A stretch of 64,000 nt of DNA, taken from contig OZ253581.1 of the NCBI GenBank assembly GCA_965263055.1, positions 553,650 to 617,649 on the forward strand, given 5' to 3'. Source of the DNA: Vicinamibacterales bacterium. Lineage in GTDB: Bacteria; Acidobacteriota; Vicinamibacteria; Vicinamibacterales; UBA8438. The notes below the pieces were generated by a model. It did no database searches and was not told the origin of the DNA. It saw only the letters and a program-made list of their open reading frames with translations. Numbering within the stretch: position 1 is the first letter of the stretch; every line of letters starts with the position of its first letter. The position numbers were made by a program, and so were the translations under genes. This document shows positions 9,648 through 47,468 of this stretch, one piece after another.

Positions 9648-11003
9648 TTAGTGAGGGGTCGGCCGCCCCATGATCGTCGGCTTCTGATCGGACAGGCTGT
9701 CGACAACCGCCTGCGACACCACGTTCGAGAAGAGCGGGCGGATGTTCAGGTGGTTGTAAGGCCGGATCTGAATCATCAGCAGGCCGATCAGATCCTCCAC
9801 CGGGTCGGCCCAGTACAGCGTCCCGTAGGCGCCGCCCCAGGTGTAGCTGCCGATCGAGAGCGCGTCGTTCGCCAGGGCCGAGTCGGTCAGGACGCCGAAG
9901 CCGAGACCGAACCCGTAGCCGGGACCCCTGACGTAGACATCCTTGCCGGCCCCGATGTGGTTGCTGATCATGTTGTCGACGGTCATCCGGCCGAGCAGCC
10001 GCACGCCGTTCAACTCGCCGCCGTTCGCGATCATCTGCGCGAACTGGTAGTAGTCGGCGGCCGTGCCGGCAAGCCCCGCCACGCCCCGGAACATCGGCCG
10101 CGGATCGATGTACCGCGGCTGCACCATCAACTCGATCTTGCCCTCGTCGCTCGGCCGGTAGACCGACGCCATCCGTTCCACCTTCTCTTCCGGGACGTAG
10201 TAGTACGTGTCGGTCATGCCGAGCGGCTCAAACATCCGCTCGCGCAGGAACTGATCGAGCGACTGCCCGGAGATCTTCTCCACAAGGACAGCGACGTAGT
10301 CGGTGGAGTCGCCGTACTGCCACTCGTTGCCCGGATGGAAGTTGCCCGGGATGATGGCGGCCGCCGCCACCCGCTCGGCGAGCGTCGGCCAGCCCTTGCC
10401 GTCATTCGTCACCTTGGCGACCTGCGCGTCGGTCAGCCCCTTGCCGCCCGGGTTCATCGTCAGCCCGGAGGTGTGCGTCAGGACATGCCGCACCGTGACC
10501 GGCCACGCCTCCGGCACGGTGGCCGGCCGGACACCGTCCGCGTTGATCCGGACCCTGTGATTCCCGTATTCCGGGATCCACTTGGCGATCGGATCATCGA
10601 GCAGGAACTTCCCCTCCTCGAACAGCATCATCAGCGCCGAAGAGACGATCGGCTTGGTCATCGACATCAACACGAAGATGTCGTCCGTCGTCATCGGGAT
10701 CCGGTTCGCCGCGTCCCGCCAGCCCTGCGCCTCGAAGTGGACCACCTTCCCCTTGCGCGCCACCAGCGTCACCGCGCCGGCGATCTGCTCGGTGTCGATG
10801 TAGTGCTGGATGAAGGCATCGATCCGCTCCAGCCGCTCGGTGGACATGCCGACCGACTCCGCCTCGGCTACCACGATGTCTTCCGCCGCGCTCGCGGCGA
10901 ACGGCGCGTCGCCGTACCCGCCCGGCGCGAGCAACGCGGCCGCAATCACACCCGCCGCTGCCATGACCGGCCAGCGCCGGCGATAGGTCATTCTGCCTCT
11001 CAT
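9648..11003 (-). CDS. Serine hydrolase, beta-lactamase/transpeptidase-like family
   Basis: SxxK motif SMTKP following LMSM. Signal peptide. YGDSTDY and class-C-like layout. Confidence 0.85.
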   Translation of the reverse strand: MRGRMTYRRRWPVMAAAGVIAAALLAPGGYGDAPFAASAAEDIVVAEAESVGMSTERLERIDAFIQHYIDTEQIAGAVTLVARKGKVVHFEAQGWRDAANRIPMTTDDIFVLMSMTKPIVSSALMMLFEEGKFLLDDPIAKWIPEYGNHRVRINADGVRPATVPEAWPVTVRHVLTHTSGLTMNPGGKGLTDAQVAKVTNDGKGWPTLAERVAAAAIIPGNFHPGNEWQYGDSTDYVAVLVEKISGQSLDQFLRERMFEPLGMTDTYYYVPEEKVERMASVYRPSDEGKIELMVQPRYIDPRPMFRGVAGLAGTAADYYQFAQMIANGGELNGVRLLGRMTVDNMISNHIGAGKDVYVRGPGYGFGLGFGVLTDSALANDALSIGSYTWGGAYGTLYWADPVEDLIGLLMIQIRPYNHLNIRPLFSNVVSQAVVDSLSDQKPTIMGRPTPH

Positions 11004-11029: not shown

Positions 11030-12409
11030 TTACTGGTAGTCCACCGCCGCCAGCGAGACGCGGATGATCTCCTCGTCGTTCCGTGTCACCAGGTGGCGGT
11101 TGGCGTAGGCCGGGTGGGTCCAGTTGACCGCCCGGTCCTCGAAGCGACGCGGTCCGTAGCCCGAGCGCGACGTCGCCTCGATCAGCGTAGTCCGATCGAT
11201 CTCCTCGTAGCCTTCCGGCGTGAACCGCGCGATCATCAGGTCGCCGGCGTCGTTGTTGACGAAGTAGCGGTCGCCGTGGCGCACCATGAACGCGGCGCCC
11301 CAGCGGCGCTGCGCGGTCATCTCATCCGACACCCAGAGCCGCTCTCCGGTCCGCGCGTCGAGGCCGCGCAGCTCGCCGTAACTGTCGACCCCGTAGATGT
11401 AGTCGCCGTCGACAATCGGCGTCGTGATGACCGAATGGAGCGCCCTGGTATCGTCCGGCATCTCGCTCGAGCCGCTGATCTGCCAGACCTGCTCGGCGGC
11501 GGGCCGGTCGCTGGCGAGGCGAAGCATCATCGACCCGCCGTACAACTGGGTCAGAAAGAGCTGGTTGCCGTCCCGGACCGGTGTGGCCACGGTCATGCTC
11601 GAGGGGACCTCCCACCGCTCGGACCAGTAGATCGCCCCGGTCTCCAGATTGAGCGAGGTGACCGCGGTCGGATGCCAGACGATCAACTGCCGCACGCCGC
11701 CCGCCTCGTAGATGACCGGCTGGCCGTAGCCCATCTCGTTGGTCACGTCGATCGCGCGCCAGATCTCCTCGCCCGTCATCTTGTCGAACGCCATCACCAG
11801 TCCGTCCGGCTCGGCGCCGACGATGTGGATCAGGCGGTCGCCATCGACGATGGGGGCGCTGGCCGTTCCCCAGATGGGCACCGTCGTGTCGTAGTCCGTC
11901 GCCGTATCGTGCTGCCAGAGCACCTCACCGGTCTCGACCTGCAGGCAGAGCAGCATCCCGGCCCCGCCGGCAACATAGACCCGGTCGCCATCGACGGTCG
12001 GCGTGGCGCGCGGCCCGGTCGCGTAGGACAACATCAGGTTGCGGTAAGCGGTCAGCCACTCGTACGTCCAGAGGACGTCGCCCGTCGCCTCGTCGAGCAC
12101 CAGCAGCCGCTCGGTGCCGTCCATCACCCGCGTTTCCGGCAGGAACTCGAAGTCGGTGACGAACACCCGGCCGTCGACGATCGCCGGGCCCGAGAAGCCC
12201 GACTCGATCGGCGTCCGCCACGCAACTCTCAACCCGTCGGCCGGGAAGCGGTCGATGATGCCATCCTCGGTCCACACCCCCAGGCGGCCGGCGCCGCGCC
12301 ACTCCGGCCAGTCGGCCGCCCCGAGCGCCGGCGACACAAGCGCCAGTCCGACGGCTGCCAGCATCCATCCCGAAACCGATCGACCCGACCGGCGCGGCGC
12401 TATTCGCAT
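11030..12409 (-). CDS. Secreted PQQ-like beta-propeller repeat protein (BamB-like fold)
   Basis: Signal peptide MRIAPRRSGRSVSGWMLAAVGLALVSPALGAADWPEWRG. Repeated propeller-blade motifs of the type V.V....G.L..LD..TGE.LW. The first 106 codons of the track ORF look non-coding, so the start is placed at Met-107. Confidence 0.7.
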   Translation of the reverse strand: MRIAPRRSGRSVSGWMLAAVGLALVSPALGAADWPEWRGAGRLGVWTEDGIIDRFPADGLRVAWRTPIESGFSGPAIVDGRVFVTDFEFLPETRVMDGTERLLVLDEATGDVLWTYEWLTAYRNLMLSYATGPRATPTVDGDRVYVAGGAGMLLCLQVETGEVLWQHDTATDYDTTVPIWGTASAPIVDGDRLIHIVGAEPDGLVMAFDKMTGEEIWRAIDVTNEMGYGQPVIYEAGGVRQLIVWHPTAVTSLNLETGAIYWSERWEVPSSMTVATPVRDGNQLFLTQLYGGSMMLRLASDRPAAEQVWQISGSSEMPDDTRALHSVITTPIVDGDYIYGVDSYGELRGLDARTGERLWVSDEMTAQRRWGAAFMVRHGDRYFVNNDAGDLMIARFTPEGYEEIDRTTLIEATSRSGYGPRRFEDRAVNWTHPAYANRHLVTRNDEEIIRVSLAAVDYQ

Positions 12410-13982: not shown

Positions 13983-13985
13983 CCC

Positions 13986-14047
13986 GGAGCCCGTGGCAAG
14001 ACCCCGCTACCGTCGAACGGCGATGCCGGGGTTTCGCCGCGGGCTCC
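13986..14047. mobile_element. Miniature (62-bp) derivative of the 166-bp TIR element
   Basis: GGAGCCCGTGGCAAGACCCCGC...GCCGGGGTTTCGCCGCGGGCTCC matches both terminal inverted repeats and the first ~20 internal nt of the full-length copies. It lies between two convergent genes. Confidence 0.6.
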
Positions 14048-14385
14048 TACCGTTCCGTCCCGCAGCTCCAGCAGGCGGTGAATTGCGCTTCGATCGTCTC
14101 GCCGCACTTGCGGCACCGCCACGTCTCGCCCTCCGTGCTGACGGGTGCACCCTTGGAGGTAGCGTACTCCTCGGCGATCTCGACTGCGCGGGCGTATAGC
14201 ACCGCGTCGTGGGCAAGCACCCAGAGCGAAGGACGGGTCTCCATGCCGAAGAGCGTCCCGCCCTGGAACGGCACGAAGTCGGCGCCGCGGATAACGACGT
14301 CGATCCCTTCCCGCTCGAGCAGGCCGCGCAGCAGGTGGGCGTCGCCCGGACCGTCGGCGACGTAAATCTTCCGGAGGTCCGACAT
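14047..14385 (-). CDS. DUF2007-like putative signal-transducing protein with a C-terminal zinc ribbon
   Basis: The N-terminus IYVADGPGDAHLLRGLLEREGIDVVIRG is typical of DUF2007. C-terminal CxxC-N10-CxxC (CRKCGETIEAQFTACWSC). Confidence 0.65.
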   Translation of the reverse strand: MSDLRKIYVADGPGDAHLLRGLLEREGIDVVIRGADFVPFQGGTLFGMETRPSLWVLAHDAVLYARAVEIAEEYATSKGAPVSTEGETWRCRKCGETIEAQFTACWSCGTER

Positions 14386-14387
14386 CT

Positions 14388-16037
14388 CTACTGCGCCGGC
14401 GGCACGTCGATCGACAACTCCGCGCCGAACATCGCGGTTCGATCCTGATCGATGGCGGCCCAGCGCAGCAGCGTCTCACTATCGGGTTCGACCATGTCGT
14501 CGAACACCGTGACGCCGTTGACGCTGACCGTGATCGACTGCGTGAAGTCGAACTGCTCGGGCGACAGCAGCAACGTAAACCCTCGGACGCCGCGCGTGTA
14601 GGCATTGACGCGGTTGCCGCGCTGATCCAGCTCGACCCGCCCGGCCGGGTTGCGTCTCGGGAACGCCTGGCGACCCTGGGGGGCGGCGTCGGCGGGATAG
14701 ATCAGCGCAATGTCGAGGCGCTCTCCCGACCGCTCGATGACCAGCGGGATCCGCTGCCCCGGCGCAAAGCCGATCAGCGCCTCCTTCAGGTCGTCCACCG
14801 ACGGATTCAACTGGCCGTCAACGGCGACGATGGTGTCGTCGTCCACCATCCCGGCGGCCGAGGCGATGGAATCCGCCCCCACCTCCAGGACCCGCAATCC
14901 GGTCCCGTCCTGCAGCTCACCGATCATGTTGATGCCGAGCTGCAGCCCCTGATTCGGATCCAGGATCGTGTTGTACGGATCGAGTTCCGGTTCCCCCTCG
15001 ACCTCGCCCAGATCGTCAATCACCAGCCAGTGCGCCCGATTGAAACGGTCCGCGGTACCCGTCTCCCACGACACTCGAGGCGATAGCGGCCGGCGTGTCT
15101 GTTCGGCCATGAACATCGCCATCGCGTCCGCCTCCTCGTCCCACCAGTCGGTGTTGTGGCCTGCCTCCGGCTTGACGCGGAAATCCACAAAGACGCCCGC
15201 CCCCTGGAAAAGCCGCATGAACGGAACGACCGTCGCCGCCGGATAAAGCTGGTCGCGGCCGCCGTTGACGACGAAGAGCGCCTTGTTGCGCAGGTTGGTG
15301 GCGTGCAGGTCGGTGTCCAGCCCGCCGGCAGGGTTGGCGAGGACTATCGGATGGCCGATCAGCAGGGTGAAGCCGGCCCACGGCGTGGTCGCCGTCATCG
15401 CCTGATAGTAGCCGCCGGTTGCGCCGTCGGAGATGCCAACCAGGTGGACCCGGTTCTCGTCGATGTTGTACGTCCGCTTCAGGTCGTGCAGCACACCTGC
15501 GAGGTTCTCGACCTGGCTTCCGTGCCACCAGAGCGATTCCGGCCACGAAAGCGGCGCCACGACAATGGCGTCCTCGCGGGCAAAGCGTTCCTCCCGGCGC
15601 CACCAGCTCCCGTCGTCCCGCTTCGGACGTGCAACACCGCCGTGCAGGTAGACCACCGCCGGGTATCGGACCGCCGGGTCGTAGCTGTCCGGCACGAGGA
15701 CGACGTACGGATGCTCGACCCCGTCGCGGTTCGTGCGGGTCAGTAGGCGCCGGCCGGTCGGGACGTCGTCCCGATAGGCCCGGCCGGCGCGCAACCGGCG
15801 CCAAATCGACTCGATGTCGGGCTCGAGTTCAAGAATGGCGGACGTCGCCGCGGCGAACTCCGCTTCGGTTGCCGACGCCCAGAACTGCTCCACCGCGGAG
15901 TCCAACGCCAAGTCGTCGTCCGACGACTGTCCGGCTCGCGCGGGGAGTGCGGCGACAGCCAGCAGCCCGACTGCCGCCGCGGCGATAGGCACGAACCGGA
16001 CGCGCGTCGCAGCAAGGACGCGCGTCGCGCAGGTCAC
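14388..16037 (-). CDS. Secreted alpha/beta hydrolase (peptidase/esterase type) with a C-terminal PDZ domain
   Basis: Signal peptide. Nucleophile elbow GISDG. YLHGG oxyanion-like segment. PDZ-like GLRVLEVGADSIASAAGMVDDDTIVAVDG...GQRIPLVIERSGERL. Confidence 0.7.
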   Translation of the reverse strand: MTCATRVLAATRVRFVPIAAAAVGLLAVAALPARAGQSSDDDLALDSAVEQFWASATEAEFAAATSAILELEPDIESIWRRLRAGRAYRDDVPTGRRLLTRTNRDGVEHPYVVLVPDSYDPAVRYPAVVYLHGGVARPKRDDGSWWRREERFAREDAIVVAPLSWPESLWWHGSQVENLAGVLHDLKRTYNIDENRVHLVGISDGATGGYYQAMTATTPWAGFTLLIGHPIVLANPAGGLDTDLHATNLRNKALFVVNGGRDQLYPAATVVPFMRLFQGAGVFVDFRVKPEAGHNTDWWDEEADAMAMFMAEQTRRPLSPRVSWETGTADRFNRAHWLVIDDLGEVEGEPELDPYNTILDPNQGLQLGINMIGELQDGTGLRVLEVGADSIASAAGMVDDDTIVAVDGQLNPSVDDLKEALIGFAPGQRIPLVIERSGERLDIALIYPADAAPQGRQAFPRRNPAGRVELDQRGNRVNAYTRGVRGFTLLLSPEQFDFTQSITVSVNGVTVFDDMVEPDSETLLRWAAIDQDRTAMFGAELSIDVPPAQ

Positions 16038-16984
16038 GGCTGGCTTTCTGTCGCTGCCTGCGCACCACCCAGGCCATGCTGGCCCAGGAAGCGCTGGATC
16101 GTTTCGAAGATCGCGGTCGTCTCTTCGCGGTTGAATCCGCCGTGGCCGCCGCCGGGAACGGTATGCAATTCGTTCGACACGCTGGCGCCCGACAACGCTT
16201 CGTGCAACCGGACCGCATGCCGGTACGGCACGGTCGGGTCGGCATCGCCATGGATCGTCAGCACCGGGGGCAGCCCGGAGCGCACGTAAGTGAGCGGTGA
16301 GACCCTCTCGGCCACGTCTTTCCGATCCGCGAGGCTCCCCATCCAGCGAACCGCGTACGTCTTCTCGTTCGCCCCCGCCAGCAGGTCGCCCACATCGGTG
16401 ATGCCGTACCAGTTGATGACGGCCGCGACCCCCAGGTCACCCCGCGGCTGACACTCCAGGTCGAGGCCCGCAGAGGCGGGGATCATCCCGGTAGTGAGGG
16501 CCAGATGTCCCCCGGCGGAGTTGCCGGTCAGAACGATACGGTCGGCGTCGAAACCGTACTGCTCGGCGTTCGCCTTCACCCAGTGCAGCGCGCAGAGGCA
16601 GTCCTCCACGGCGGCCGGCGCGCGAGAGATCCGGCCCAGGCGGTACTGGACGTTGACCACCGCCCATCCCTTCTCGAGCCACGGAAGCAGCCGAAGCACG
16701 TTGCTCTCCTTGCTGCCTCCGACCCAGCCCCCGCCATGGATGTACATCAGGACCGGCGCGGGGCCCGCGCTGTTGCGCGGCAGGTAGAGATCGACCCGGT
16801 TCTCGAAACCGTTCGCGACGTGGTAGGTCACGTTCGGCACCACCCGGAATTCGTTGGAGACATGCGAAGCCCAGATCTCGGTGGAGCCGAGTTGGGCGTC
16901 CGCCACGGACGGTGCTGCCGCCAAGGCGACGACGGCAAACAGAGAAGCAAACGCGAGAGATCGTCTGGTCATGGCCCCTCCCAT
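16034..16984 (-). CDS. Alpha/beta hydrolase, HSL/carboxylesterase-like
   Basis: HGGGW oxyanion motif and GNSAGG nucleophile elbow. Signal peptide. 4-nt overlap with the downstream gene. Confidence 0.8.
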   Translation of the reverse strand: MGGAMTRRSLAFASLFAVVALAAAPSVADAQLGSTEIWASHVSNEFRVVPNVTYHVANGFENRVDLYLPRNSAGPAPVLMYIHGGGWVGGSKESNVLRLLPWLEKGWAVVNVQYRLGRISRAPAAVEDCLCALHWVKANAEQYGFDADRIVLTGNSAGGHLALTTGMIPASAGLDLECQPRGDLGVAAVINWYGITDVGDLLAGANEKTYAVRWMGSLADRKDVAERVSPLTYVRSGLPPVLTIHGDADPTVPYRHAVRLHEALSGASVSNELHTVPGGGHGGFNREETTAIFETIQRFLGQHGLGGAQAATESQP

Positions 16985-17046: not shown

Positions 17047-17212
17047 CTAGGAGCCCGTGGTGAAACCCCGCGTAGCACCGAGAGCGGTGAGGCGCCCGCC
17101 TGACAAGGCGCGACGAGGGAGCATATTGGCCATATGCGACCGAGGAGCAACGCCGTTCAGGCGGGATGCATCGCCGCTCGAATGTAGTGGGGGTTTCACC
17201 ACGGGCTCCTAG
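17047..17212 (+). mobile_element. 166-bp MITE/REPIN-like element, copy 1
   Basis: CTAGGAGCCCGTGGTGAAACCCC ... GGGGTTTCACCACGGGCTCCTAG, about 23-bp terminal inverted repeats. The interior can pair into a long hairpin. Near-identical copies lie at 19204 and 21307. Confidence 0.8.
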
Positions 17213-17278
17213 ACCACCGCCACGCCGTTAACTCTGTGACGCCTCGCCGGATATCATGGCCCCGAAGGCGGAGGAACC

Positions 17279-19207
17279 ATGAGTACAGCAATTCGCGCGC
17301 TCTCGATTGCGGCAGCCATCGCGCTGTTCCCGGCGACGGACGGGCTGGCGCAGATCACCGAGTTCAACGTGGAGGTAGTCGAGTCGCCGGCGCTCGACGG
17401 GCAGCGCTTCGGTGAGGTGGGCCAGTACGAGCGGCTCCGGGGCATCGTGACGGGTGCGGTCGACCCGGCCGATCGGCGCCACGAGCACATCGTCAACCTC
17501 GATCGCGCACCCCGCAACGCGGCGGGCCTGGTGGCGTATCGCGCCACGGTGGAGATCTACCGCCCGGTCGACATGAGCCAGTGGAATGGCGCCATCTTCC
17601 ACACGGTCTCGAACCGGGGCGGAGCGGGAGCGGCCGAGCCCGCGCTGCTCGAGCGCGGGTTTGCCTTCGTCCGAGTGGGATGGCAGGGCGAGTTGACGCC
17701 GACGGAAACGAACATCGTCGCCTACCTGCCGGTCGCGACGAACCCCGACGGCTCGCCGATTGTCGGGCCGGCCCTCGAGGAGTTCATCTTCAATAATGCC
17801 GAGCCCCGCTCGCGCGGCCGCCTGACCTATCCCGCCGCCTCGCTCGACCCCGGGGGCGGGATGCTTTCGGTCCGTGCGAACCAGAACGGCAAGCGGGAGG
17901 CACCGCCGGATCTCGAGTGGCGCTACGTCAGCGATCGGGAAATCGAGATCGAGCGGCCGGTCGGCTCCGACGGCGGGGCGATCTACGAGTTCATCTACCA
18001 GGCGAAGGATCCGCTCGTGCTCGGACTCGGCTTCGTCGCGATGCGTGACGCCATCTCTTTCCTCCGTTACGAAACCGCTGACGCCACCGGCAACCCGAAC
18101 CCGCTCGCCACGGGGGACGGGCTCGCGGCCACTGCCCTGTCGCTCGGCATCTCCCAGAGCGGCCGGATGCTGCGGGACTTCCTCTATCAGGGGTTCAACG
18201 AGGACACCGCCGGCCGCATGGTTTTCGACGGCATCCACCCGAACATCGCCGGGTCGCGCAAGACGTTTACCAACTATCAGTTCGGCCAGCCGGGGCGCTG
18301 GCAGAAGCAGCACGAAGACCACGTGTACCCGGGCGATCAGTTCCCGTTCACCTACGCCACGCTGACCGATCCGCTCAGCGGCCGGACGGACGGCCTCCAG
18401 GAGCGGTGCCGCACTTCGAACACGTGCCCGAAGATCGTGCACAGCGACGGCGAGGCGGAGTTGTGGCAGGCGCGCGCGTCCCTGATCGTCACCGACCCCA
18501 AGGGACGGCACATCGACTTGCCGGACAACGTCCGCGCGTATCTCCTGTCCGGCACCCAGCATGGAGGCGGTCCGGGAGTCCACACGCGGCCGCCGAGCCG
18601 CGGGATGTGCCAGAACCTGAACAATCCTCTGGCGCTGGCGCAGACGCGGACCGCCCTGAGCGTCACCCTGTACGAGTGGGTGGCGAACGGGGTCGAACCG
18701 CCGCCGAGCCGGTTCCCGACCGTCGCCGGGGGCGGTCTCGTTCCCGCGGGCGCACTCGGTTTTCCCGACATCCCGGGAGTGACGTACTCCGGGTCGTACA
18801 ACCCACTGCGCCTGGCGGACCACCGCTCGCTCCCCCCGATGCACGGCGATGCCTACACGGTGTTGGTCGGGCGCGTCGACGCGGACGGCAACATGCTGGA
18901 CGGCGTGCGGCACCCCAACCTTGCGGCGCCGGTCGGGACATACACCGGCTGGAACCTCCGGCGTGACGGCTTCGCCGAAGGGGCGCAGTGCGCCGGAACC
19001 GGCTCGTTCGTCCCGTTCGCAGCAACCGAAACGGCGCGTAGGGAGTCCGGCGATCCGCGCCCGTCGCTCGAAGCGCGGTACGCCGACCACGCCGCTTACG
19101 TTCGCGCCGTTTCCGAAGCGGCCGACGCGCTGGTGGAAAGCCGGGTCCTGCTTCCAGTTGACGCGGACGCCATCGTGGATCGGGCACGTGCCGCTGGAAG
19201 CAACTAG
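17279..19207 (+). CDS. Secreted hypothetical protein (642 aa), possibly of the large 'alpha/beta hydrolase domain-containing' family
   Basis: GGAGG RBS. Signal peptide MSTAIRALSIAAAIALFPATDGLAQ. The long antisense 735-aa ORF is judged an artefact. The family assignment is recollection only. Confidence 0.6.
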   Translation: MSTAIRALSIAAAIALFPATDGLAQITEFNVEVVESPALDGQRFGEVGQYERLRGIVTGAVDPADRRHEHIVNLDRAPRNAAGLVAYRATVEIYRPVDMSQWNGAIFHTVSNRGGAGAAEPALLERGFAFVRVGWQGELTPTETNIVAYLPVATNPDGSPIVGPALEEFIFNNAEPRSRGRLTYPAASLDPGGGMLSVRANQNGKREAPPDLEWRYVSDREIEIERPVGSDGGAIYEFIYQAKDPLVLGLGFVAMRDAISFLRYETADATGNPNPLATGDGLAATALSLGISQSGRMLRDFLYQGFNEDTAGRMVFDGIHPNIAGSRKTFTNYQFGQPGRWQKQHEDHVYPGDQFPFTYATLTDPLSGRTDGLQERCRTSNTCPKIVHSDGEAELWQARASLIVTDPKGRHIDLPDNVRAYLLSGTQHGGGPGVHTRPPSRGMCQNLNNPLALAQTRTALSVTLYEWVANGVEPPPSRFPTVAGGGLVPAGALGFPDIPGVTYSGSYNPLRLADHRSLPPMHGDAYTVLVGRVDADGNMLDGVRHPNLAAPVGTYTGWNLRRDGFAEGAQCAGTGSFVPFAATETARRESGDPRPSLEARYADHAAYVRAVSEAADALVESRVLLPVDADAIVDRARAAGSN

Positions 19208-19369
19208 GAGCCCGGGGTGAAACCCCGCGTAGCACCGAGAGCGGTGAGGCGCCCGCCTGACAAGGCGCGACGAGGGAGCATATTGGCCATAGGCGACCGA
19301 GGAGCAACGCCGTTCAGGCGGGATGCCCCGCCGCTCGAATGTAGTGGGGGTTTCACCCCGGGCTCCTGG
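19204..19369 (+). mobile_element. 166-bp MITE/REPIN-like element, copy 2
   Basis: Same orientation as copy 1, with a few substitutions (GGGGTG for GTGGTG in the TIR). The right flank is TG instead of TA. Its first 4 nt, CTAG, contain the stop codon of the upstream gene. Confidence 0.8.
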
Positions 19370-19671
19370 AAATCGACGGCGATACCGATCACCAGCTCCG
19401 TGGGCCCGTCCGCCTCGGCGTTCAGGGGAGGCCAATCATTCCTGAAATCCGCCTGACCCTGCGGATTCCGGCGTGGCTGTCGCGGGGGCCGCTCCCCGCC
19501 GGCGTTTCCATCGCCGCAGGGTTCGCGGCACTCAACCTGCTGCTGTTCGTCCCCCTCTACCTCCTCTACTCGCAGGAGAACAACTTCTGGCCCTTCTTTC
19601 CCCTGGGACATCCCCGGGGGGATTACGACTGGGGATGGCCGGGCATCGGGCGCAGCACGTACGAGTACGTA

Positions 19672-21264
19672 ATGCAGTTGTTCGTCCGGCGCTACAACAA
19701 GGACATCTTTCGGGTCAGCGCGGACTGGATTTTCATCGTCTCGTCGCTGGTTCTCGCTAGCCGGTTCGCGAGCACCTGGCGGAGGGCCGCGGTGCCGCTC
19801 GCGGGGCTCGCCTACGCCGCGCTGCTCGCGTTCATGGCATACAGCGGCTTTGTCCACTACCTCTTCGATCGCCCCGGCACGCTGCTTGATGATGTCCTGA
19901 TGCTCGAGAGCGCCTGGATCGTGGTGCGCGACACCTGGGGGCCGACCGATTTCCTCTACTCCGCCTTCCTGCTGGCCACGGCAGTCGGGCTGGGCCTGCT
20001 GGTGACGCGCTATCTCCAGGCGGCATGGCGCTGGGGGGCCGGCCTCGACCCGCGGCGCGTGGCGGCCGGGTGCGTGATGCTCAACGCGTACTGCTTGCTG
20101 TCGCTCACCTGGTTCGGCGTAGCGCGGGACGATCCGATCATTCAGCTACAGGCAAAGCACCTGGTCTACAACTGGCAACGGTCTCAGGACGTGCTGGCCA
20201 CCGTCGAGGCGCTGGACAGTTCCGTGGTGCGGGTTGCCGCCAGCCTGGGCAACACGACACCGGTGCGCCGCCCCGACATCTATCTGTTCTCGGTCGAGTC
20301 GTACGGCGCGACGCTGTGGGCGGACGACGACTACCGTGTCGCGCGACAGGGTCTGATGCGCAAGGTGCAGAGCGAACTGGGCGAAGTCGGGCTGCCCATC
20401 TTCACGCGCTTCGCGGCCTCTCCGGTGTACGGCGGCGGATCCTGGATGAGTACGGCGTCGGCCCTGAGCGGAATGCGGATCGGCAACCATTCGTTGTACT
20501 GGGCGTGGAAGCGCATGGCTCACCGCTATCTCCATCTGATCGCCTACCTGCAACGCAATGGTTACTACACGCTGTCGGTTCAGCCCGGCGCCACGTGGAC
20601 CGAGGATCTCTACGACTACGACGAGGTAATCATTCGCGAAGATTTCTCTTACGACGGCTTTGCCTACGGTTTCGGCCACGTGCCGGACCAATGGGCTCTC
20701 GACTACGCGTTCCGCAACCACTGGAGCCGGCGCCCGCGTCCCCGGCTGCTTCACTTCGTGGCCACCTCCACGCACTATGCATGGGATCCGCCGCCCCGGA
20801 TTACGGAGGACGTCGCGGACCTGGAAATGCCGCAACCGACCTTTCTCGAGACCCGGCCCGACTATGTAGAGCTGGCGCTGACGGTTCCCCAGGGTCAGAA
20901 GCGGGATTTCTTCGTAACCGTGGCCTACGAGTGGGAGCTGTTGCTCGAGGCGTTCCGGAATCGGATCGAACCCGATTTCATCGCGCTGATTCTTGGCGAC
21001 CACCAGCCGCCGTTCATCACGGACGGCCAGGGCGACAGTGATGTCGCCCTCCATGTCGTTACGGACATTCCCGCGCTTCCGGGACTGCTGGCGGGGGCAG
21101 GCTTCGCGGCGGGCGGAAACGTGCCCTGGAAGCCCTCCGTGTCGACGGAGTTCGGGATGGAAGGCATTTATCCCTTCCTGTTGAGTCTGCTGTCCGCGGA
21201 AGCAGGAGACACCCTGGAGTACAGCCCGACCGGCATCGCGGTCCCGGAGTTGCCGACGTGGTAG
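19672..21264 (+). CDS. Membrane-anchored alkaline-phosphatase-superfamily (sulfatase/LTA-synthase-like) protein; the true start is probably upstream (see findings)
   Basis: N-terminal TM helices, then PDIYLFSVESYG and GGGSWMSTASALSGM segments reminiscent of sulfatase-like transferases. The frame is open and membrane-protein-like back to nt 19345. Confidence 0.55.
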   Translation: MQLFVRRYNKDIFRVSADWIFIVSSLVLASRFASTWRRAAVPLAGLAYAALLAFMAYSGFVHYLFDRPGTLLDDVLMLESAWIVVRDTWGPTDFLYSAFLLATAVGLGLLVTRYLQAAWRWGAGLDPRRVAAGCVMLNAYCLLSLTWFGVARDDPIIQLQAKHLVYNWQRSQDVLATVEALDSSVVRVAASLGNTTPVRRPDIYLFSVESYGATLWADDDYRVARQGLMRKVQSELGEVGLPIFTRFAASPVYGGGSWMSTASALSGMRIGNHSLYWAWKRMAHRYLHLIAYLQRNGYYTLSVQPGATWTEDLYDYDEVIIREDFSYDGFAYGFGHVPDQWALDYAFRNHWSRRPRPRLLHFVATSTHYAWDPPPRITEDVADLEMPQPTFLETRPDYVELALTVPQGQKRDFFVTVAYEWELLLEAFRNRIEPDFIALILGDHQPPFITDGQGDSDVALHVVTDIPALPGLLAGAGFAAGGNVPWKPSVSTEFGMEGIYPFLLSLLSAEAGDTLEYSPTGIAVPELPTW

Positions 21265-21306
21265 CCCGCGGTTGACCGGGATACGGCCATGAGCGGGTTG
21301 CCGGGG

Positions 21307-21472
21307 CTAGGAGCCCGTGGCGAAACCCCCACTACATTCGAGCGGCGATGCATCCCACCTGAACGGCGTTGCTCCTCGGTCGCATATGGCCAATAGGCTC
21401 CCTCGTCGCGCCTTGTCAGACGGGCGCCTCACCGCTCTCGGTGCTACGCGGGGTTTCACCACGGGCTCCTAG
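21307..21472 (-). mobile_element. 166-bp MITE/REPIN-like element, copy 3 (inverted relative to copies 1 and 2)
   Basis: Reverse complement of copies 1/2 with about 10 substitutions. Its right-hand CTAG supplies the stop codon of the minus-strand gene 21469..23916. Confidence 0.8.
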
Positions 21473-31334: not shown

Positions 31335-31411
31335 AGGCGCGTAGCTCAGTTGGTTAGAGCGCCTGCTTGACATGCAGGAGGTCGGCGGTTCGAGTCCGCC
31401 CGTGCCTACCA
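31335..31411 (+). tRNA. tRNA-Val (anticodon GAC), CCA encoded
   Basis: A 77-nt cloverleaf built by hand. Acceptor AGGCGCG/CGUGCCU, D-arm GCUC/GAGC, anticodon stem CCUGC/GCAGG with loop UUGACAU, T-arm GGCGG-UUCGAGU-CCGCC, discriminator A plus CCA. Confidence 0.9.
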
Positions 31412-38780: not shown

Positions 38781-38996
38781 AATCCTGAGATTAGAGTTCC
38801 CTGCAGTACGCGTGATGGTTGGAGGCTCGTTTGAGCCATTGTTAAATCGAAGCGAATCGCGACGCGTCGCCGTGTGCATGCCTCGGCGCGAGGAAGCCTG
38901 AGAGGCGGCGTTTGATGACAGCGGTTCCACCTGCGGACGCAGGTTCATACGACCTCCCCACACGGTAATCGCGGGGCTTTTCGTTCGACCCAGGTT
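38781..38996 (+). ncRNA. ssrS: 6S RNA candidate (ends approximate)
   Basis: 5' AAUCCUGAGAUUAGAGUUCCCUGCAG... pairs with 3' ...CGCGGGGCUUUUCGUUCGACCCAGGUU to form a long interrupted helix. Internal segments resemble E. coli 6S as I recall it: UGAGCCAU, GCAUGCCUCGGCGCGAGGAAGCCUGAG versus GCAUGCUCGGUCCGUCCGAGAAGCCUUAA, and the hairpin ACCUGCGGACGCAGGUUCA versus ACCUUGAACCAAGGGUUCA. It lies downstream of zapA, as in E. coli. Confidence 0.6.
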
Positions 38997-47110: not shown

Positions 47111-47468
47111 GGGGGCGACACGGCTTCGACGGGGGTCATGGAATCGTCGGATGCATGCCGAGCACCATCGACTCGTAAATCCGATGGAAAACCAAGTAAC
47201 TGCGGACACGCAGCTGCCTCTCGCTGCCTAGACGGTAGCGACGCCTCTTCCGATCCCGCCCGCGGGCCGGAAGCCAGGTGTCATATTAGCGGGCTGGCCA
47301 CCACGCGCGGCACCGACACGTGGCGGCGAGACGTCATCGGGGCTGGTTCCTCCGGCGGTTTCCGCCGCCCTTAGACGCCGGGGACGAGACAAACAAGGGC
47401 GGACACGCATGTAGAGTCCGACGGGTCTGGGTTCTCGGACGCGGGTTCGACTCCCGCCGCCTCCACCA
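47111..47468 (+). ncRNA. ssrA: tmRNA (SsrA)
   Basis: 5' GGGGGCGACACGGCUUCGACGGGG and 3' ...GGACGCGGGUUCGACUCCCGCCGCCUCCACCA. Acceptor stem with a G3:U70 pair. Internal tag ORF ...GAA AAC CAA GUA ACU GCG GAC ACG CAG CUG CCU CUC GCU GCC UAG gives (A)ENQVTADTQLPLAA*. Confidence 0.9.

Follow-up and report, generated by a model that had tools for sequence, protein, structure and literature searches.

A 166-bp repeat occurs three times in a 64,000-nucleotide stretch of a Vicinamibacterales bacterium (contig OZ253581.1, positions 553,650 to 617,649; hereafter the window). It is very probably a non-autonomous miniature inverted-repeat transposable element (MITE) of the Vicinamibacterales that is moved by an IS5/IS1182-like transposase and that has recently inserted three times, independently, at CTAG sites. 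We classify it as an IS5-family-type MITE with a structurally constrained hairpin core. The copies lie at 17047-17212 (+), 19204-19369 (+) and 21307-21472 (-), where a first-pass annotation made from the sequence alone had placed them. When aligned in one orientation, their 166 element columns are about 95-98% identical; the similarity extends precisely to the CTAG at either end, beyond which the flanks are unrelated. Every copy carries two terminal inverted repeats of about 20-23 bp (perfect in copy 1), in agreement with the approximately 23 bp first proposed. The interior is likewise as first described, with self-complementary arms, a TGGCCA centre and direct GCGAC.GAGGAGCA repeats. With up to 3 mismatches, the 20-nt terminal repeat GGAGCCCGTGGTGAAACCCC is matched at eight places in the window and at none in dinucleotide shuffles. 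Six of these matches are the ends of the three copies, and the other two belong to a mini element at 13983-14050, a fourth member that the first pass had missed. The element has no coding capacity, as had been recognized: its open reading frames (ORFs) are those that arise by chance in a sequence of 65-69% GC, and the ORF peptide that recurs in the copies is bottom-strand frame 3 of the repeat. The features are as follows.

17047-17212, + strand: MITE copy 1, CTAG on both sides included; covariance-model score 199.9 bits on the + strand versus 68.5 on the - strand
17050-17069, + strand: left terminal inverted repeat of copy 1, GGAGCCCGTGGTGAAACCCC; partner at 17190-17209, 0 mismatches in both arms
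17091-17169, + strand: apical core of copy 1, GGCGCCCGCCTGACAAGGCG, then GCATAT-loop-ATATGC, then CGTTCAGGCGGGATGC
19204-19369, + strand: MITE copy 2; the Abhydrolase_10 gene (642 aa) takes its TAG stop, 19205-19207, from the left CTAG
21307-21472, - strand: MITE copy 3, inverted, between convergent genes; its right CTAG gives the TAG stop of the DUF305 gene (21469-21471, minus strand)
13983-14050, no strand assigned: mini derivative of about 65 bp, two terminal repeats and a 22-bp spacer
17279-19207, + strand: 642-aa protein of the Abhydrolase_10 family whose N-terminus resembles a signal peptide; belongs to the ancestral block
19474-21264, + strand: membrane protein of about 596 aa; belongs to the ancestral block, and the related loci L100 and L101 have orthologues (591 and 594 aa) in the corresponding position

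Insertions into an ancestral gene block

Copy 1 sits in the divergent intergenic region between an esterase gene that starts at 16984 (- strand) and the Abhydrolase_10 gene that starts at 17279 (+ strand). Copy 2 lies about 105 bp upstream of the start of the membrane-protein gene (GTG, 19474), and its right flank has decayed to CTGG. The mini element is found between convergent genes for a PEGA-domain and a DUF2007-like protein, on the TAG stop of the minus-strand gene. The three full-length copies delimit exactly two genes, as the first-pass annotation had observed, and it had proposed that these genes were acquired or rearranged by recombination between the copies. Geometry alone, with two genes bracketed and the outer copies mutually inverted, suggests such a composite arrangement. 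The same two genes are present between the same neighbours in L100 and L101, neither of which has any of the three copies. The gene order common to the window, L100 and L101 is Peptidase_M16, beta-lactamase, PQQ, PEGA, DUF2007-like, a 550-aa protein, esterase, Abhydrolase_10, the membrane protein of about 591 aa, DUF305 and penicillin amidase. Orthologues of the 642-aa protein are 93% (L100) and 89% (L101) identical to it (85-93% overall in conserved synteny), and third-codon-position identity between the window and L100 is 87%. Because relatives keep this order while the copies are absent, the block is ancestral and the two genes are not an acquired cassette. Moreover, each copy has its own CTAG flanks and encodes no transposase, and the more distant genome OZ252008.1 keeps the flanking genes, with extra genes between them, and lacks the three copies. 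The synteny refutes the composite arrangement, and we regard it as highly improbable that the copies brought in or rearranged the bracketed genes. The sulfatase-like label given earlier to the second gene also found no backing, as searches of Pfam and NCBIfam return no family for the membrane protein.

Empty sites were recovered for two of the copies. Site 2 is unoccupied in L101 (gcaaCTAAaagtcgacgg), where the window reads gcaaCTAG[158 bp]CTGGaaatcgacgg; site 3 is unoccupied in L100 (gccggCTACcgcagg), where the window reads ggggCTAG[158 bp]CTAGcgaagg. Each of the two sites has gained 162 bp net, equal to either 158 + 4 or 160 + 2. The mini element has 40-bp orthologues in L100 (4890-4929) and L101 (4888-4928), and its site is empty in L103 of OZ252008.1 (gtgaCTACcg). 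All copies are present in ENA contig ERZ25071132:ctg819747, which is 99.7% identical to the window and encodes the 642-aa protein. The three copies in the window are independent recent insertions into pre-existing intergenic or stop-codon CTAG sites, made after the split from the L100 lineage.

Three further observations concern this region. Between Abhydrolase_10 and DUF305, where the window has the membrane protein alone, OZ252008.1 (L102/L103, 9939-14930) has four extra genes, encoding proteins of 267, 574 and 331 aa and a CarboxypepD_reg protein of 279 aa; between more distant genomes, then, this interval varies without involvement of the MITE. At the orthologue of site 2 in L103 (approximately 9918-9945), directly after the Abhydrolase_10 stop codon, the flank is duplicated in tandem over 12-13 bp (GGAAGCAACTAG followed by GGAAGCAACTTAG), which could reflect replication slippage or the footprint of a lost element. 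In the 99.7%-identical ENA contig (L099, from the same species as the window), copy 2 (11926-12070) has five small deletions (7, 4, 3, 4 and 1 nt), which reflect genuine decay or, alternatively, a consensus error of long reads at a strong hairpin.

Family size and candidate partner insertion sequence

Copies were collected by a scan for exact matches of the terminal repeat, with one genome per species, followed by BLAST, pairing of terminal repeats and a covariance model for which 34 distinct copies served as input. The terminal repeat is present in at least 98 genome-contig stretches, nearly all from Vicinamibacterales metagenome-assembled genomes (MAGs). In the loci fetched from about 20 Vicinamibacterales genomes, 844 kb in total, the covariance model identified about 78 oriented copies. 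The search for further copies and insertion polymorphisms that had been suggested with the first annotation thus returned both, the polymorphisms being the empty sites in L100, L101 and L103. At least 35 MITE copies are located in OZ252008.1, a 4.55-Mb chromosome with more than 30 matched blocks. A scan of viral contigs for the terminal repeat gave 0 matches.

The common size classes are 166, 184 and 202 bp, both CTAG sequences counted. They differ by one or two stem-loops of 17-18 nt (GGACTGNCGCAGTCC) in the right side of the apical internal loop. Mini elements of about 60-95 bp were found, as were larger variants with other small hairpin repeats nested in them. Three of the large variants (250-326 bp; L043:3505-3776, L068:5333-5582 and L073:2637-2962) enclose, in one to three copies, another hairpin, GTAGGGGCAACCCTTGTGGTTGCCCC, which starts with GTAG like classical repetitive extragenic palindromic (REP) sequences; repeats of the GCAGAATTC type also occur inside large variants. 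At the other extreme are hairpins of about 30-40 bp that consist of two terminal repeats of the MITE or insertion sequence (IS) alone (L129:588-624, L134:715-751, L181:795-830, L164:233 and L103:10720-10752). These adjoin IS copies or sit between genes, and may be extreme deletion derivatives. Outside the phylum, a Longimicrobiales MAG (Gemmatimonadota; L078:5080-5157) carries a short version of about 80 bp that has a CTAG flank and the right-arm motif GGGATGCGTCGCCGCTCGAATGCAGCGGGG, attributable to horizontal transfer or, alternatively, to an error in binning.

MITE copies are 97-99% identical between genomes in which an orthologous gene is 84% identical, and 69% at third codon positions. These are the values for Abhydrolase_10 in the window and OZ252008.1, where a non-orthologous copy is 98.8% identical to copy 1. 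The IS described below is 97% identical between two other species. Judged by these identities, the near-identical MITE and IS copies across species indicate recent horizontal spread or very strong constraint.

Matches to the terminal repeat that remained unpaired led to an IS of 1474 bp, both CTAG flanks included, at L070:2349-3822. A second IS, 97% identical and from a different species, is found in OZ252008.1 (L048:2500-3973), where it abuts a MITE copy at a common CTAG; this is the genome that carries at least 35 MITE copies. The left end of both ISs is CTAG followed by CAGCCCGTGGTGAAAGTCCC, and the right end is CTTCTGCCACGGGCTG (also written GCCACGGGCTG) followed by CTAG. They contain an intact ORF of 456 codons whose product matches Pfam DUF772 (9.5e-18) and DDE_Tnp_1 (1.5e-05). 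Its best NCBIfam matches are IS1182 (1.2e-45) and IS5_4 (2e-23), both below the curated cut-offs, and a plasmid homologue (48% identical) was labelled "IS5 family transposase" by its depositors. A metagenome scan returned more than 555 relatives of the transposase. We fetched 80 of these, with 60-95% amino-acid identity, and nearly all have the ends CTAG-CAGCCCGTGGTGAAAGTC and GACTTTCACCACGGGCTG-CTAG. The MITE has AGCCCGTGGTGAAA in common with the ends of this IS family; in copy 1, positions 2-15 of the terminal repeat are identical to it. One IS copy (L116) begins GAGCCC as the MITE does, and some MITE copies have CAGCCC/GGGCTG at their two ends.

These data suggest the following model. The MITE, which has no gene of its own and shares its terminal 15 bp or so with a large family of ISs of about 1.47 kb, would be mobilized in trans by the 456-aa DUF772 + DDE_Tnp_1 transposase acting on GAGCCCGTGGTGAAAC ends. 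Integration would involve a 4-bp staggered cut at the target, and the hairpin would be needed either for transposition or for the element to be tolerated. The partner suggested by the first-pass annotation was an IS630/Tc1-mariner or a REP-associated tyrosine transposase (RAYT); the matching ends turned out to belong to an IS5/IS1182-like DDE family instead.

Target sites and stop codons

CTA...TAG flanks are present in about 85% of 72 terminal-repeat pairs, with no conservation further outward. The tetranucleotide CTAG is rare in this DNA: the window has 12 occurrences, where 182 are expected from its base composition (69% GC), an approximately 15-fold under-representation. Five of the 12 are MITE junctions. 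Non-palindromic direct flanks are informative with respect to the length of the duplication. Among the ISs, CTAA/CTAA was observed in L155, L160, L162 and plasmid pLB1 and TTAG/TTAG in L138, and MITE copies have CCAG/CCAG and CTGG/CTGG. Because such flanks favour a 4-bp duplication at YTAR, the target duplication most likely comprises all 4 bp, and at minimum the central TA.

Junctions often coincide with the ends of genes. The junction TAG is the stop codon of an ORF of at least 300 nt, supported by its GC content at third codon positions (GC3), in 21 of 61 distinct copies (34%), compared with 14 of the 117 unoccupied CTAG sites in the same loci (12%). Both element ends are used (11 versus 10 captured stop codons). 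Within the window, copy 2, copy 3 and the mini element are each on the stop codon of a gene. A search for in-frame insertion within genes, of the kind known for Rickettsia palindromic elements (RPE), found no spanning ORF with coding-type GC3 on both sides. CTAG carries TAG on both strands and is duplicated, so an insertion on a TAG or TAA stop leaves frame and stop intact. We propose that the transposase would target the very rare CTAG, or more generally YTAR, which would be duplicated on insertion, and that copies would gather on stop codons where insertions survive, those within genes presumably being purged.

CTAG is also the target of IS630 elements, which duplicate TA. An IS630/Tc1-mariner-derived MITE, with GGAGCCC...GGGCTCC placed at CTAG, a TA duplication and a DDE_3 partner having GGAGCCCGTGG ends, would therefore be compatible with the CTAG flanks, and a 2-bp duplication directly explains the TTAG...CTAG or CTAG...CTAA flanks of several copies. 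It would not be expected to yield the 4-bp repeats CTAA/CTAA, TTAG/TTAG, CCAG/CCAG and CTGG/CTGG. In addition, matching ends were found only on ISs that encode DUF772 + DDE_Tnp_1 rather than DDE_3, and those of the IS630-type copies in L105 (CTAG followed by TGGTTCGTCAC) are unrelated. An origin from IS630 is accordingly very unlikely, and an IS5/IS1182-like partner remains our preferred assignment. The L105 copies are two tandem elements (HTH_32 + DDE_3; 14391-16741) in a relative with an 8.5-Mb genome. Each is flanked by CTAG, so that two unrelated IS families compete for this rare target.

Hairpin structure and related repeat families

The folding analysis called for by the first annotation predicts a single long hairpin for the 166-mer, with energies of -114 kcal/mol for the top strand (z = -12) and -103 kcal/mol for the bottom strand (z = -10). 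Across the 34 distinct copies, 97.6% of 1730 cells are paired. Both sides have changed in 18 of the 51 pairs; shuffles gave 5.7 +/- 1.4, with none of 500 attaining 18, and slid controls gave 2-6. G.U variants are frequent, two of them invariant, and A.C variants are rare singletons. The top strand is the more stable one in 59 of 61 copies when folded as RNA (-107 versus -98 kcal/mol) and in 60 of 61 when folded as DNA. While the stems covary, conservation is seen in the internal loops, the direct GAGGAGCA-type repeats and motifs such as GGGATGCATCGCC and TCGAATG.AG. It is stronger in the apical core than in the terminal repeats; in copy 1 this core holds both direct GCGAC.GAGGAGCA repeats, to which the element owes its asymmetry. 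The element at L112:1668-1831 and two hairpins in L118 have kept the apical core and have different outer arms, and the terminal repeats of L112 and the MITE agree at only 9 of 19 positions.

A hairpin with pairing kept by compensatory changes, and with one strand favoured as expected of elements that move as single-stranded DNA, might also be a REPIN, a doublet of REP sequences mobilized by a RAYT transposase (IS200/IS605-like, single-strand). REPINs resemble the present element further in being multi-copy and extragenic. They differ in lacking target duplications and in being tied to a single-copy RAYT, whereas the element studied here has duplications at a strict CTAG/YTAR target and the ends of a DDE IS. 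The GTAG/CGTC tag is absent from these ends, and the true GTAG-tagged REP-like hairpins are the separate small repeats nested in some large variants. No RAYT gene was seen beside any copy, in a search that was neither exhaustive nor genome-wide. We consider a REPIN to have hardly any chance of being the correct description. The first-pass annotation had left open a MITE- or REPIN-like family; its MITE half is borne out by the copy number and the empty sites, and its REPIN half is not.

An alternative that deserves more weight, though we think it unlikely, is that the mobile element also carries a functional single-stranded RNA or DNA structure, with selection maintaining the apical core and not just the ends. 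Such a structure could serve as a 3'-end or stability element, control the transposase, or be the folded substrate on which transposition acts. The degree of pairing, the excess of double changes, the pattern of G.U and A.C variants and the strand asymmetry all point in this direction, as do size classes that differ by whole stem-loops and the retention of the core by L112 and L118. Several observations oppose it. Orientation relative to flanking genes is unbiased, the 5' end being read into by 20 genes and the 3' end by 23, which leaves a directional terminator or promoter role without support. A U-tract terminator is absent. Rfam 15 has no match overlapping the copies at gathering thresholds, and E <= 10 yields one chance match of 21 bits to a microRNA model; a known structured RNA, which had been named as the finding that would overturn a mobile element, is thus not indicated, and the mobile-element reading stands. 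The copies are related by descent, so that the counts are not independent, and template switching within quasi-palindromes could contribute paired changes without selection. Finally, in OZ252008.1 orientation differs between the two halves of the coordinates (6+/15- versus 9+/3-; Fisher p = 0.014, for a boundary picked after seeing the data), and the sign of the local GC skew is not associated with orientation in this or the other genomes. This replichore bias is unconfirmed.

A weak sigma-70-like motif, CTGACA-16 nt-CATATT (9/12), is located inside copies 1 (17100-17127) and 2 (19257-19284). It is directed towards the right end of the element and is kept in the close family, not in the diverged L112 and L118. 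Known RNA genes in the window are unrelated to the repeat: a one-piece tmRNA (47111-47468, +; 151.8 bits), a 6S RNA (38795-38981, +; 58.2 bits) and a tRNA (31335-31408, +).

Several points weigh against a MITE mobilized by the IS5/IS1182-like transposase. A plain selfish MITE does not explain the compensatory pairing, the strand preference (59/61) or a core that is more conserved than the ends. There is no transposase of the matching family within the 64-kb window, and the similarity between MITE and IS is confined to the terminal 15-20 bp or so. The spacer at site 1 in L100 and L101, where the element is absent, is too diverged to give a base-exact empty site. Lastly, about six IS copies and several MITE copies have mixed flanks (TTAG/CTAG), which fit a TA-only duplication or a decayed 4-bp duplication.

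Comparison with known systems places the element closest to the IS5 group. IS5 itself uses a YTAR target with a 4-bp duplication, and the element resembles it in the DUF772 + DDE_Tnp_1 partner transposase, in short terminal inverted repeats and in a YTAR target, mostly CTAG, whose flanks are best explained by a 4-bp duplication. As in IS5-family MITEs, the non-coding derivative has only its ends in common with the IS. The differences are that the 456-aa partner fits the IS1182 model best, yet stays under the NCBIfam cut-offs for both IS1182 and IS5, that the ends are CAGCCCGTGGTGAAAGTC and not those of IS5, and that the element is a full-length, structurally conserved hairpin rather than two ends merely joined.

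Two other families are similar in form. Correia elements (Correia repeat enclosed elements, CREE, or Neisseria miniature insertion sequences, NEMIS) of Neisseria are non-coding sequences of about 100-160 bp with terminal inverted repeats of about 25 bp and a TA-containing duplication; they have many intergenic copies beside genes, size variants due to internal indels, and fold into hairpins. Promoter, integration host factor (IHF)-site and RNase III functions have been demonstrated for them. The present element is like them in all of these formal traits, namely size, terminal repeats, duplication, intergenic location, size variants and hairpin. It has no sequence similarity to them, it targets CTAG rather than TA alone, and it has a candidate partner transposase, which is not established for Correia elements. 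The enterobacterial repetitive intergenic consensus (ERIC) sequences, or intergenic repeat units (IRU), are imperfect palindromes of enterobacteria located in intergenic regions or 3' untranslated regions, with conserved secondary structure and longer variants made by internal insertion. Both families are imperfect palindromes of 120-170 bp that share all of these properties. Unlike ERIC/IRU, the element described here has its terminal repeats in common with an IS, is flanked by target duplications and has empty sites that can be demonstrated, and transposition is for these reasons much better supported.

To the extent that the conserved core has a role, it may be separable from the ends. We tentatively raise the possibility, on balance an improbable one, that the apical core of about 80 nt is a functional single-stranded RNA or DNA module, kept on one strand and carried by MITEs with different terminal repeats. 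Its parts are a GCAUAU/AUAUGC stem, two purine-rich internal-loop strands of the GAGGAGCA type and a flanking CCCGNCUGA/UCAGNCGGG stem. If this were true, the core may regulate the IS5-like transposase or serve as a folded transposition substrate, and MITEs would be vehicles of a structured non-coding element, beyond inert deletion derivatives.

Our literature search found nothing specific on MITEs in Acidobacteria, nor on MITEs at CTAG or stop codons. The present work is a first description of an abundant MITE family, together with its likely IS5/IS1182-like partner, in the Vicinamibacterales, a lineage dominant in soil, rarely cultured and represented mainly by MAGs. One practical consequence is that gene callers mis-call ORFs through copies, as seen for a 676-aa ORF across copy 2 in the public contig L099. 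For the biology of the family, a transposon limited to a strongly avoided tetranucleotide ends up on stop codons without harm to genes. The strand-asymmetric, covarying hairpin with its conserved core provides a tractable case for distinguishing MITE structure that serves transposition from a role at the RNA level.

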